Source of the DNA: Eledone cirrhosa
Taxonomy: Eukaryota
NCBI GenBank assembly: GCA_964016885.1
Contig: OZ024741.1
Location: forward strand, 28,148,001 to 28,212,000
Direction of reading: 5' to 3'
DNA length: 64,000 nucleotides
The position numbers and the translations under genes were made by a program. Positions 19,898 to 48,460 of this stretch are shown here, one piece after another; positions within the stretch are counted from its first letter, which is position 1; the number at the start of each line of letters is the position of its first letter. The notes below the pieces were generated by a model, which made no database searches, had not been told where the DNA came from, and saw only the letters and a program-made list of their open reading frames with translations.

Positions 19898-19992
19898 ATC
19901 CATCTATCTATCTATCTATCTATCTATCTATCTATCTATCTATCTATCTATCTATCTATCTATCTATCTATCTATCTATATATCTTTCTATC
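19898..19992. repeat. (ATCT)n microsatellite, 5' flank of Tx1-A
   Basis: direct reading. Confidence 0.95.
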
Positions 19993-20210
19993 AGACGTGT
20001 GTAACTTCGCGGAGAAGTTTCCGTTAATTTATATAAGAAAAAAACGTGAGTTTTTAGTTAAATTTTATATTATTGTGTAACTTGACCCCCCGTCTGAACC
20101 TTCAGGTGGTGGGTCAACTCATTTTCGCCCCTACAGGGGCGGAATATCCATTTGAAAAATTTTTTCTCCATCGAATCTTGGAAAAAATATTGTAAAATTT
20201 TGATTACGTT

Positions 20211-22125
20211 ATGAACGCTGCGTCCAACGATAATGGTGGTGGAGAGGCGGTAAGACTACAAAGCTCGCAGTCAACAACGTCTTCTTCACTAGATACTATA
20301 GAGATGGAAAGACGAAATGAAAATGTAAAAACGAATTCATATCCAAACAACACAAATGACACCAAACAATTCAATGACAACAAAAATAACAGCAACACCA
20401 ATAATGATGATAAAAGCAACAATGATAACAACAACAAAGAAAAAAATAAAGACAACACCAATAACACCAGCATCAAAGACAACAACAACACCAAGGAAAA
20501 TACGAATAATACCAACATCGGTGACAACAAGAATAACAACAAAATAACAACAATAATGACAACACCAACAACACGGATTCCACAAAGAAACCAAAAATCT
20601 CCTTTGCAGAGAAAGTAAAAAAAAAGGAGGAATTGATATATCTCGACATAACAAATGCTGAACAACTTTTAAAGGACGCTAGGAGATATGTCACTTTCGA
20701 AAAAAATGGTGCTTTCAGCATCAATTCTCCGGTAGAAATTCGCAAGGAAACTGCTCTCAAAACGATAGTTTTTAGGACAGTTTCCAATTCTACCCGAAAA
20801 CCAGTCCAATTGTCACAGAAAGAAATTGAACTGGTTTTCAAAAATTCAATGAATGATATTGCATTCATTCAAAGAAGCAAACTTTTTGGGAGTATTTCGG
20901 TACTCATGAAGGATCAATTGACGGCCCAAAATTACTCTGTGTCGCCAATTGTATCCAACCTGTACACCTTTTTCCCTACATACATGGGAAAAAGGACACA
21001 AAAGATCAGAATCACGAGTGTCACACCAAAGGTGAACATATGATGGATACTATGCGGCTTCATCAATTTTGATGAAGACAGAATACTGTCAGTAGGAAAG
21101 TTCCCCAGAGATGTATTCAATGGGACTAGCATTGAAGTTCTGGTGCAAATGAACCCAGAGCGAATAGCTATGATCCCACAACGTGTACTCCTGGACGGAC
21201 TCACCTACATAAACTTTTCGGTTGAGGGTAGGCGGCCTTCATGTTACCATTGCTTTATCAGGAGTCACCTGAGGGCTTCCTGTCCTAAATTAATGAATAA
21301 AAAAAGGCTCTTCTACCGACACCCATCAAAACAACACAACCACCAACACCACCACAAGAACAACAACACCAACATACAAAAATAACCACAACAAACACAG
21401 TCCCACCCAACCCCACTCCACCTAAAACCACTGCAAAATCACATACAGACACAACAGCTCCCCAAAACATACACCTCCCCAATCACACAGACGATACAAC
21501 AGATGAGGCTATCTCGCCATCACCCAGTGAAGACCAGGGAGAACCCCATCGCTCGAAAAGAAAGAAAAGACATCACGAAAGCAAAAAAACCAGCAAACAC
21601 TACCACAAACATACAACCACCAACACAAACAACAAAAACATCACAAACAAAACCCCCACCTCCTGAAAACAAAATACCTACAACAAAACGAAAGCACACA
21701 CAAGAACTACAGACAAAAACAAACACAACACAAGAAAATTACACTTACACTTACATAAACACTGAAAACAAAACACTAATGGAGACCATCACGAACGACC
21801 CTTCGGTGAAAACCGAAGGGAAAACTTTCGCCCACTCTATTAAAAATAGCAAAAAACTGAACCTAAAACTGATTAGGGTCCCTATACAAACTTATAGGTC
21901 CCTAAAAGAAACATTTGAGAAGGATGTGGGGAATTCCTGCGTGAAACCACTCAACCGCGTCCTCCTCAAATGTCTCCCCACCCAGACACCCCCATCCCAC
22001 CAGACCCCACCCCACCAAACATCTCCGTCCCCACCCCGCCGGAAACCACCACCCATCCAGACAACCCCTCCAACACCCCCATGGAAATCGTGCGGCCTGG
22101 TCCCCAGGAGACGAAGGGTGAGTGA
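20211..22125 (+). pseudogene. Tx1-A ORF1 (gag-like), frameshifted
   Basis: N-rich N-terminus, SVEGRRPSCYHCFIRSHLRASC knuckle, T/P-rich C-terminus; broken into several ORFs. Confidence 0.8.
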
Positions 22126-22158
22126 TCTCTTTTCCTCTTTTAACTTTTCAGCACCAAC

Positions 22159-46045: not shown

Positions 46046-46079
46046 GTTTAAATAGAGTGGAAAAGATGGGAAAGACCAC

Positions 46080-48173
46080 TTACCGTACTTTTGGTAGAGG
46101 AGGGATGGTTTTTACATCCCTTTTCACTTGATCGTCTGGTGAAGGGACCGTTGAATCGTCCCTTCGGCTGGTCGTCGGCTCTTCTAAGAGAATGTCTGAA
46201 TATACTCTTCGATTGATGGTTCCTCCTAGGTCCCTGAAATCACCAACTGCGTTGGGGAATTTCGTTTTAATGTTTGTGTATTGTTTCTGTGCTATTTTTA
46301 GCAGTCTTATGTTAGTTGGCGTTTTGATTGGTGCTGGTATTATGTAGTCCTGTTGTGAAATGTCTGTGTGTTCAATTATGTAAGTCATTAGTTTCTTGTT
46401 GTGTGTGTTTATTGCCGTGCATTTGTTTTTCTGGGGGTGGGGTGTGGTTCTGCTATTTTCTTGTCGTTGTTGCTGGGTGTGTGTGTTTTGTTGTTGTGTT
46501 TGCGATGTTGGTGCTTGTGGTGGTGGTGTTGAAGGTGTTGTTGGCGGTGGGGTTGTCGCCGGTGTTGATGGTGGTGCTGGTGTGGGTGGTGATGGTGTTG
46601 GTGGTGTTGCTGCTGTGGGTCTCTTTGCAGTAGACTTTACCCTTTTCTCATTTCTTTCCTCCCTTTTCAAAGGCGACGATGCGCTGCTTCTGCGTTTGTG
46701 CCTTCTTGCGACCTTTTGCCATCCCTCTCCCACCTCACACTCCATGTCTGATTCTGTAAGGTCGGGGAGGGGTACCAGCTCCACTCTTTCACTTGTTGTT
46801 GTTGGTGATGTTTGCACTGGAGTCTCTGTTGCAGCTGCATTTGGTATTGCTGTTGTTGTTGTTAATATTTCCACTGCTGCTGCTGTCTTTGATTTCCGTG
46901 GAGTGGGTATGGGTGCCACGGACCTATCGTTCCTGGTTGCCGCTTGTCCTGTTGCTGGTAGCCGTGGAGCCGGATTCGGAAGGAGGGGGGTTTTCTCCTT
47001 TCTCAGGGTCTTCTCGTTGCAGAAGGCCCTGAGGTGAGTCTTCGATCCACAGCGAAAGCATTTCGGGCGTTTGCCCTCAACACTTATGGGCAGTTGAGTG
47101 CCGTTATCGAAGTCTATCACATCCGGGATAGCTTCGATGCACTCCTGGTTGGTTTGGATTAGCATCTCAATGGAGGAGCCGACCCAATCTTCTCTTACTT
47201 TTTTCTGTACTTGCAGTACAGTTGTTTTGTCCTCGATTCCGACGAGGACAGACGCGGCCAGCCAAGAAGGGGTCATTCCGGGGGGGACGTGGGTCAGTTT
47301 GACCCTCACAATTTTTTGCCCGCAGTAGGAGGGCACCAACACCATTTCCTCGCTCCTTAGGGTCACTACTGATTGGGCCTTTGCCTCCTGGGGTGTGGCA
47401 AAAAGTACGTCTACGGTGGCGTATTTTTTGCCTCGGGTGATGTGCGTTTTCCTCTGCCACACAGACCCCAAGGCTTTTTGTATTTGGGCCTCTGTGGCTC
47501 TTTCCACCCTACGGGATTTTGTACTTACTGTACGGTACGTGACCGTACAGTGCTCTTGGGTTTCGAAAAAAATTTTCGCTGCCTTGCAGATTGCTCGGTG
47601 TCCGTTCTTTGTCACCATCTTCTTCGCTTCCTCTAATTCCTCATTTGTTATGAGGATTGTTTCCAAGTTTTTCGCAATACCTGCAAATGAGATTGGTTTT
47701 TCTCTGCTGTTGTTGTTGTCGTCAGAGCTGCTGGTACTTTTGTTGCTGCAGGTACTACGACTACTGCCTCCGCCGCTGTTGCTGTGGTTGTTGTTGGTGT
47801 TGCTGCTGCTAATGCTGTTGTTGTTTATGCTGCTGGTGATGCTGTTGCGGCTGCTACTGTTGTTTTCATTGTCACTGTTGCTGTTGTTATTACGGCTGCT
47901 ACTGCTATTATTCCTGACGTCAGACGAATGAACTGGGTTTTCGTATTTCCCGCACACCTGTTTCGTCGCTGTCGTCGTCGTCGTGGAGAAACCTTGCACG
48001 CTTTGCACGAGACTTTTCTTTTCTTTCGTCGCTTGCGAAAGAGAAGGGAGGGAGAGAGACACATTTAAAGAAGGGAGGGAGAGAGACAATCTTCTCTCTG
48101 CTGTAGTGATGATTGAGGAAGAAGAAGACGGAATGAGTGGGAGTGACGTATGAAATTTCTTTTTGGTAGCCAT
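46080..48173 (-). CDS. Tx1-D ORF1 (zinc knuckle)
   Basis: Translation identical to copy C. Confidence 0.88.
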   Translation of the reverse strand: MATKKKFHTSLPLIPSSSSSIITTAERRLSLSLPSLNVSLSLPSLSQATKEKKSLVQSVQGFSTTTTTATKQVCGKYENPVHSSDVRNNSSSSRNNNSNSDNENNSSSRNSITSSINNNSISSSNTNNNHSNSGGGSSRSTCSNKSTSSSDDNNNSREKPISFAGIAKNLETILITNEELEEAKKMVTKNGHRAICKAAKIFFETQEHCTVTYRTVSTKSRRVERATEAQIQKALGSVWQRKTHITRGKKYATVDVLFATPQEAKAQSVVTLRSEEMVLVPSYCGQKIVRVKLTHVPPGMTPSWLAASVLVGIEDKTTVLQVQKKVREDWVGSSIEMLIQTNQECIEAIPDVIDFDNGTQLPISVEGKRPKCFRCGSKTHLRAFCNEKTLRKEKTPLLPNPAPRLPATGQAATRNDRSVAPIPTPRKSKTAAAVEILTTTTAIPNAAATETPVQTSPTTTSERVELVPLPDLTESDMECEVGEGWQKVARRHKRRSSASSPLKREERNEKRVKSTAKRPTAATPPTPSPPTPAPPSTPATTPPPTTPSTPPPQAPTSQTQQQNTHTQQQRQENSRTTPHPQKNKCTAINTHNKKLMTYIIEHTDISQQDYIIPAPIKTPTNIRLLKIAQKQYTNIKTKFPNAVGDFRDLGGTINRRVYSDILLEEPTTSRRDDSTVPSPDDQVKRDVKTIPPLPKVR

Positions 48174-48460
48174 GTTTTTTTGTTTAAAATGAAATTTTGG
48201 GTACAAAACCCCAATAACTGGTTATTTAACCCCGAAGGGCCAAATAACGGACAGAAAGACCCCTCTCACGAGGAGGAGGGTGTCTTTATCAACAATTTGG
48301 TTCAAGTTTTAAACAATTTACAATTGTTTTAACGGTTAAAAATTACTATACCTTACAGAGCCGAGCCTCCGTCAACCATGGCATTCAATAATAATAATAA
48401 TAATAATAATAATAATAATAATAATAATAATAATAATAATAATAATAATAATAATAATAA

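Follow-up and report, generated by a model that had tools for sequence, protein, structure and literature searches.

Microsatellite-specific families are already known in the Tx1 clade of long interspersed elements (LINEs), and a change of target between close relatives is an established theme there. Kibi and Koshi of teleost fish are specific for (TC)n and (TTC)n, respectively, and crocodilian Tx1 families are specific for (TTCC)n or (TTTC)n (PMC4494074; PMC3812793); satellite and transposon targets have also been recorded for the clade (PMC4494074). The isolated endonuclease of Tx1L from Xenopus laevis is sequence-specific (PMC1950540), and Dong, of the R4 clade, is specific for a trinucleotide repeat written (TAA)n (PMC3812793). 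How LINEs with an APE-type endonuclease acquire or change their targets is only partly understood. Here, we describe five copies of Tx1-like LINEs, elements A to E, in a 64,000-nucleotide stretch of the Eledone cirrhosa genome (contig OZ024741.1, positions 28,148,001 to 28,212,000; hereafter the window) and compare them with these known systems and with their relatives throughout the genome. The five copies represent three closely related families that very probably insert in an orientation-specific manner into (TATC)n (A and B) or (ATT)n (C, D, and E).

These families share with Kibi, Koshi, and the crocodilian elements both the APE-type mode of microsatellite insertion and the use of different repeat units by close relatives (PMC4494074; PMC3812793). 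They differ in the units themselves, (TATC)n and (ATT)n, for which the available text of the same two sources has no listing under Tx1; Kibi and Koshi were compared by description only, and their targets are not those found in the flanks of A, B, and C. The full-text literature yielded no Tx1 family for (ATT)n/(TAA)n or (TATC)n/(GATA)n, in a search that did not extend to Repbase, Dfam, Repbase Reports, or the supplementary figures of PMC4494074. Among octopods, a 2026 repeat annotation of Octopus vulgaris reports recently active LINEs that include L1-Tx1 (13 families) and Dong-R4 (five families), with no target data in the available text (PMC13282606), and an earlier octopus study treated RTE and Dong only, the word Tx1 having no occurrence in the text at hand (PMC9115989).

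Repeats at both ends of the elements

Elements A and B lie head-to-tail on the forward strand, both between (TATC)n repeats, as a preliminary description of this DNA had proposed and as the repeat finder and direct reading now bear out. A (TATC)24 microsatellite (19897..19992, +; Tandem Repeats Finder and direct reading) forms the 5' flank of A, a full-length element of (TATC)n-specific family A (19993..25686, +) with the 3' end AATAAAGAAACA. The spacer TATCTATCTATCTATCTC (25687..25705, +) serves A as its tail and B as its 5' flank; B is an element of (TATC)n-specific family B (25706..30969, +) that also ends in AATAAAGAAACA and passes into (TATC)17, its tail and 3' flank, and then into (TC)~43 and (TA)13 (30970..31147, +; Tandem Repeats Finder and reading). 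Small corrections to the preliminary description concern the end of A, which lies at 25686, and the broken state of A and B. The first open reading frame (ORF1) of A spans approximately 20210-22171 and ORF2 approximately 22159-25419 (+), with frameshifts in ORF2, and in B a shortened ORF1 is followed by an ORF2 at 27269-30702 (+) that contains stops, the frames of both copies in the window being disrupted by frameshifts and stops. The (TC)~43 and (TA)13 tracts directly after the (TATC)17 of B make up a compound microsatellite at 31037-31147.

Elements C, D, and E lie on the reverse strand. Element C (36276..42299, −), which is intact and belongs to the (ATT)n-specific family of Tx1-like LINEs, has the 3' end AATAAAGAAATC and continues into (ATT)16, its tail and 3' flank (36228..36275, −). 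An (ATT)21 spacer (42300..42362, −) serves as the tail of D and the 5' flank of C, and element D (42363..48386, −), a second intact copy with the same 3' end AATAAAGAAATC, is preceded by (ATT)25 (48387..48461, −), which reads (AAT)25 on the forward strand. ORF1 encodes 697 amino acids with one CCHC knuckle (39993-42086 in C, 46080-48173 in D; −), and ORF2 encodes 1139 amino acids (36539-39958 in C, 42626-46045 in D; −). Element E (57304..58135, −), located outside the coordinates of the preliminary description, is a 5'-truncated copy of the C type, approximately 93% identical, that ends in AATAAAGAAAGC followed by degenerate (ATT)n and whose truncated 5' end borders on degenerate (AAT)n (58136-58155). 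The (ATT)n flanks and 3' ends described earlier for these three copies were confirmed, as was the statement that poly(A) tails are absent, which holds for each of A, B, C, D, and E. Tandem Repeats Finder shows that the other AAT/ATT-type or (TATC)n arrays of the window all adjoin these elements or the Dong/R4-like copies described below, with the sole exceptions of two 30-base (AAT)/(ATT) tracts at 15628-15657 and 15981-16010.

To extend these observations, we searched the 3.0-Gb source genome with terminal sequences of each family, 200-350 bases from either end (350 bases for the 5' query of C), and read the flanks of 30 loci per query, taken from the top-scoring copies. At least four ATT units follow the 3' end of C in 28 of 30 loci (exceptions L015 and L029), and at least six precede its 5' end in all 30, always with ATTATT directly joined to GAATGCCATGG. 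Family A is followed by TATC-type sequence in 30 of 30 loci, although with only one or two units in L032 and L048, and is preceded by the repeat in 30 of 30, CTATC directly joining AGACGTGTG. The 3' flank of B starts with TATCTAT or TATATAT in every one of its 30 loci, with fewer than two units in L070, L075, L082, and L085, and its 5' flank carries the repeat in 28 of 30 (exceptions L127 and L135), with the junction TATCTCT then GGGATGG that also closes the A/B spacer of the window. Many 5' flanks consist of a short repeat after unrelated unique sequence rather than a neighboring copy. All three families exceed, at both ends, the share of more than 20% of flanks that Kojima applied to target preference (PMC4494074). 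Given the array-to-element adjacency in the window and the repeat at 28 to 30 of 30 loci per flank across the genome, the association of element and repeat is not due to chance.

A repeat on both sides, in fixed register and orientation, fits insertion into the repeat and supports target specificity as opposed to merely a self-made tail. We weighed this reading against the possibility that the elements make the repeats themselves as tails, by slippage of the reverse transcriptase (RT) or from a templated 3' repeat, and that a 5' repeat is just the tail of an older neighbor. The I factor, for instance, ends in (TAA)n and is not known to target it. Very short tails beside unrelated sequence (L032, L048, L075, L082, L085, and L215) would be expected under such a scheme, and many 5' flanks are indeed the tail of an upstream copy, both in the window (A-B and D-C) and in the A sample (L092, L093, L095, L098-L102, and others). 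However, unique sequence stands before the 5' repeat in A copies L096, L097, L107, L109, L113, and L114, in B copies L122, L126, L128, L131, and L133, and in C copies L156, L157, L160, L167, L168, L177, L179, and L180; the truncated copy E has a 5' repeat too; the register of the junction is fixed; and 88 of the 90 full-length 5' ends of A, B, and C carry the repeat. This last count also answers the preliminary description, which had named a majority of 5' flanks outside these repeats as an outcome that would speak against its reading. Self-made tails as the whole explanation are thus very improbable.

Several points nevertheless count against specific insertion into repeat arrays as the full account. 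Insertion into a pre-existing repeat is deduced from flanks and not from empty alleles, and most of the flank samples are a nonrandom set consisting of the youngest, best-scoring copies. Some copies (L032, L048, L070, L075, L082, L085, and L215) have one or two downstream units and then unrelated sequence, so the requirement may be a short motif rather than a long array, and the tail may be partly made by the element. Some B-type copies sit within (TA)n (L086, L088, and L218). One C-type tandem array (L161-L166) has features suggesting that it grew by duplication rather than by repeated insertion. In addition, the hairpin loop of the endonuclease is nearly unchanged among the families, so that the determinant of target choice is not obvious in the APE domain. 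Both of these last points are taken up below.

Relationships and abundance of the lineage

The C ORF2 protein contains the Pfam domains Exo_endo_phos (residues 22-210), RVT_1 (511-754), and zf-RVT (974-1026). This APE, RT, and C-terminal Cys/His layout also occurs in the L1 clade and hence does not discriminate between the two. Identities computed from ORF2 of natural whole copies of A (L216) and B (L217) place A and B close together and C somewhat further away: over the whole of ORF2, they amount to 84% for A-B, 69% for C-A, and 68% for C-B; over the APE domain to 80%, 63%, and 61%; and over the RT domain to 88%, 77%, and 78%. By comparison, ORF1 of C matches that of A at 26% across 501 residues and that of B hardly at all, in line with the earlier observation that ORF2 aligns over its full length and ORF1 is far more diverged. 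A CCHC knuckle is visible in ORF1 of both C and A. Searches of ORF1 against Pfam at E values up to 1 returned nothing significant, and comparison with a protein atlas gave leads only, to CCHC-type and ZCCHC3-like clusters (scores 0.87-0.91).

In quick IQ-TREE trees, in which support is by the SH-aLRT approximate likelihood-ratio test only, A and B group together (support 100) and form with C and the database protein P0001 a clade with support of 98. With a fourth family, S, described below, A and B form one clade (SH-aLRT 100), which is joined by C and by P0001, itself 79% identical to C. A protein from Argonauta hians, 69% identical to C, branches outside A, B, S, C, and P0001 (support 100), and the remaining database relatives reach at most approximately 43-48% identity. 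The proposal that the target changed within one lineage is thereby supported, with the (TATC)n families A and B as sisters and the (ATT)n family C as the next branch of the same well-supported clade.

The tree of relatives was built without rows from the L1 clade or other clades and thus cannot delimit the clade to which the lineage belongs, although the bit scores favor the Tx1 side of the L1 group. Against Xenopus Tx1 (P0099), to which it is 29% identical across 860 residues, C ORF2 scores 329 bits by phmmer and 303 bits by BLASTP. Its score against human L1 ORF2p is 183 bits, and Xenopus Tx1 and human L1 ORF2p score 263 bits when compared with each other. Tx1L of X. laevis is the best named relative of C ORF2 and shares with it the layout of ORF2 and site-specific insertion, but its target is the DNA transposon Tx1D and not a simple repeat, and it sits on a distant branch in our tree. 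The vertebrate Tx1 group, including unnamed fish proteins, likewise forms a branch separate from A, B, and C. Human LINE-1 has the same ORF2 architecture, alignable over approximately 850 residues, and conserved APE catalytic motifs; it differs in its poly(A) end and its loose TTTT/AA preference, whereas A, B, and C have no poly(A) and lie in defined repeats.

The lineage is abundant. A 3' end motif common to all families, TGGNNAATAAAGAAA, has 36,091 matches in the genome, compared with 280 for a reversed control. The first 30 matches along contig C1 are followed by ATT (10), TATC-type sequence (nine), a 79-bp satellite (nine), (TC)n (one), or (TA)n (one), and the tail tracks the subfamily dinucleotide, the NN of TGGNNAATAAAGAAA: copies with TT or CC have ATT tails in 10 of 10 cases, and copies with CT have TATC tails in seven of eight. 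The agreement between tail type and subfamily indicates that the preference is inherited with the element.

Many copies also appear to be recent and whole. Every one of the 147 scored matches to the APE domain of C is 100% identical, 118 of them belong to open frames of 1161 codons or more (hand count), and at least 40 dispersed copies are 100% identical across the first 350 bases of the C 5' end. For the A type, approximately 96 of 147 APE matches fall within frames that reach 1129 codons or more (hand count), and both ORFs are whole in copy L216; for the B type, approximately 10 of 131 matches have stop-free frames of 1146-1167 codons. These whole copies were found with protein queries; the 16 A and B copies retrieved via their 5' ends all have broken frames. 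The preliminary description's count of one intact version understates the matter, whole ORF2 frames of the A, B, and C types being common elsewhere in the genome. A comparison of the C 3' end with contigs of four sequence runs showed that one run contains it as a highly repeated sequence and that two others match it at approximately 98-99%. The C 3' region (36289-37000 of the window) occurs at approximately 98-99% identity in runs labeled as two other organisms (X6 and X7), and near-identical elements are therefore found under other species labels.

The fourth family of the lineage, S, has an intact 1146-residue ORF2 in L249, which shares 86.6% identity with A, 83.6% with B, and 69.4% with C. 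Its 3' end is joined at a fixed point to the 79-bp satellite (unit ...ACTCTATATATACTATTGTATTTTCACAGTAAAGGCTTTACCTCACATAATATCTCACATAACATTTACATT) in nine of nine sampled copies, the satellite also stands before its 5' end, again at a fixed junction, in 30 of 30 copies, and satellite arrays of more than 700 bases follow S copies at independent loci. Approximately one satellite unit lies on the 3' side of a solitary S copy, L219, and on the 5' side of another, L279, so one unit may travel with the element. To our eye, the satellite site CTCTATATATAC looks similar to the TATC and TA repeats. The S loci are L219, L224, L236-L241, L247, L249-L251, and L253-L282, for example at 4.22-4.26 Mb of contig C1.

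A more distant relative, L226 (L252:1100-2300, contig C1 at approximately 2.226 Mb), has a C-terminal part of ORF2 that is 54% identical to A. It shares the 3' end AATAAAGAAA with the other families; the end is followed by (TC)9, but the element is preceded by (GATA)5. L226, a single case among 30 3' ends, therefore looked like a candidate Kibi-like (TC)n family by its tail but not by its 5' flank.

A trinucleotide repeat shared with Dong-like elements

The (ATT)n repeats of the window also harbor five Dong/R4-like copies, all on the forward strand and all ending in (AAT)n or (TAA)n. The full-length copy (52000..56694, +; 4695 bases, with one frameshift) is flanked by (TAA)22 on its 5' side and by (AAT)25. 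The other four are 3' fragments: one that is 97% identical to the full copy, is followed by (AAT)19, and lies head-to-head with D (48462..49284, +); one of 1.6 kb followed by (AAT)10 (49342..50955, +); one that lies tail-to-tail with E (56770..57262, +); and one of 2.7 kb followed by (AAT)n (58156..60859, +). The full-length copy encodes an RT (RVT_1), a CCHC finger, and the motif RPDLVVVD...IVDVACPFD, which we take to be that of a restriction-like endonuclease; CRICGEREETVAHIISEC is followed by RPDLVVVDKEKRSCLIVDVACPFD, the endonuclease motif having been read by eye. In their structure and in their repeats within the window, these copies behave like Dong (PMC3812793).

The two kinds of element occupy opposite strands of the same repeat, the C family on the ATT strand and the Dong-like copies on the AAT strand, and where they adjoin, they do so head-to-head, as at D and the copy starting at 48462, or tail-to-tail, as at E, whose tail meets that of the Dong-like copy ending at 57262. 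Elsewhere in the genome, C-family flanks run tail-to-tail into a Dong-like element at L005, L014, L025, and L026. Dong carries a restriction-like endonuclease after its RT and no APE, whereas the C family has an APE; the RT domains of the Dong-like copy and C are only approximately 24% identical; and the sense strand of the Dong-like elements is continuous with AAT and that of C with ATT. The unrelated endonucleases, low RT identity, and opposite orientation together indicate that the shared target is convergent.

Between the Dong-like copies lies a further 0.95-kb piece (50988-51934, +) with a 283-residue ORF, a weak zf-RVT match (E = 0.0012), and the end ...GCAACTG followed by (TAA)22. It has no blastn similarity to the Dong-like copy and is probably the 3' part of another (TAA)n-associated LINE.

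From these comparisons, we tentatively propose, with slightly less than even confidence in the proposal as a whole, that a single young and abundant Tx1-like lineage (approximately 36,000 3' ends) has at least three heritable targets, (ATT)n, (TATC)n, and the 79-bp satellite, none of them recorded for Tx1, among families with ORF2 identities of 69-87% and many whole ORF2 frames each, and that its (ATT)n family converged with Dong/R4 on the other strand of the repeat. If this is true, the families would form a natural series in which the determinants of target choice in APE-type LINEs could be sought. Their value lies in being closely related, intact, and directed to several targets, as well as in converging with Dong. 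Because sister families differ in target, retain whole frames, and are 69-87% identical, nicking assays and swaps of domains and tails could use natural sequences. The use of opposite strands of one trinucleotide repeat by a LINE with an APE and a LINE with a restriction-like endonuclease represents convergence on a safe landing site. The elements also matter for the annotation of this microsatellite-rich genome, in which tens of thousands of simple-repeat loci are tied to them.

Insertion mechanism, arrays, and target choice

The APE domain of C aligns with the catalytic-site pattern of the human L1 endonuclease (L1-EN), including the N, E, YAP, GDWN, D, and DH motifs, and the overall mechanism would presumably be target-primed reverse transcription. 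Transcription could proceed through the AATAAA-bearing 3' end of the element into the downstream repeat. In a matching repeat, (GATA)n or (AAT)n, the bottom strand would be nicked by the APE domain, and annealing of the 3' repeat of the RNA to the nicked DNA could then start cDNA synthesis. Priming from an RNA repeat would explain the repeat tail in place of poly(A), the fixed orientation, and the head-to-tail arrays, in that the fresh repeat tail of each copy could become the landing site for the next, as may have happened at A-B and D-C.

The C-D pair and other arrays may instead have arisen by tandem duplication or unequal crossing-over, or as an assembly artefact, rather than by a second insertion, an alternative that concerns array formation only and does not conflict with target specificity. 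Across 6135 bases, C and D show 100% identity. At 441.09-441.14 Mb of contig C1, the C-type tandem array of L161-L166 repeats the interrupted spacer ATTATTGTTGGTGTCGTTATT..GCTATT, which is not expected from independent insertions. Identity by itself cannot separate duplication from fresh insertion, however, since the dispersed copies noted above are equally identical (the at least 40 copies over the first 350 bases and all 147 APE matches). The ATT tracts around C and D are unequal (16, 21, and 25 units), and A-B joins two families with 84% ORF2 identity, so that pair is not a duplication. Overall, we regard duplication as a rather unlikely source of the arrays, although the C-D pair may have arisen by either route. 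In the L161-L166 array, the interrupted spacer that recurs between copies reads ATTATTGTTGGTGTCGTTATTATTATTATTGCTATT....

With respect to target choice itself, the change between A/B and C probably lies mainly in the endonuclease domain, where ORF2 has diverged furthest (63% identity compared with 77% for the RT, C-A); pairing between RNA and target or the ORF1 protein may contribute as well. The preliminary description had suggested that specificity residues could be mapped in this domain. Such mapping is feasible, although the list of candidates is not narrow: the APE domains of C and A differ at approximately 37% of positions, and at 53 of the first 240 positions, A and B agree and C differs. 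The loop equivalent to the L1-EN hairpin loop, defined between T192 and S202 (PMC1950540), reads WTNRIGSSR in C, WSNRSGTSR in A, WANRSGTSR in B, and WTNRSGTSR in S.

The main determinant of the target might alternatively lie outside the APE domain, in the pairing of the RNA 3' repeat, in ORF1, or in another region of ORF2, in which case the APE comparison would not reveal specificity residues. The near constancy of this target-reading loop across families is one point for such an arrangement. The end AATAAAGAAATC is common to both groups, being followed by TATC in A-type copies L040, L043, L051, and L052 and by ATT in C, and ORF1 has diverged far beyond ORF2 (26% compared with 69%). A and B use the same target at 80% APE identity, and the satellite-linked S is equally far from A in its APE domain (81%). 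Loop grafts into L1-EN failed to transfer specificity, the chimera LTx lacking that of Tx1L (PMC1950540). Conversely, the purified Tx1L endonuclease alone nicks almost only its own target site (PMC1950540), no other ORF2 domain differs as much between C and A/B as the APE, and the 53 positions are fixed differently in A and B than in C. A determinant outside the APE domain is accordingly a serious candidate, though we lean toward doubting it and favor the endonuclease as the main seat of the change.

One candidate structure in the RNA is a GGGU...ACCC hairpin approximately 170-200 bases before the 3' end of several families, which folded in four of seven sequences and in which the stems differ and stay complementary (window 36440-36500, −; 25500-25545, +; 30750-30800, +; also L154 and L092). 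RNAalifold on eight 3' untranslated regions gave two short conserved helices only and did not recover this hairpin, so its possible role as an RT-recognition structure is suggestive only.

Just upstream of the element region, at 17885-18453 of the window, lies a 26-bp tandem repeat, GGCGGTCCCTTATTAGTTCGGTGTCG, in approximately 21 copies with 82% matches.

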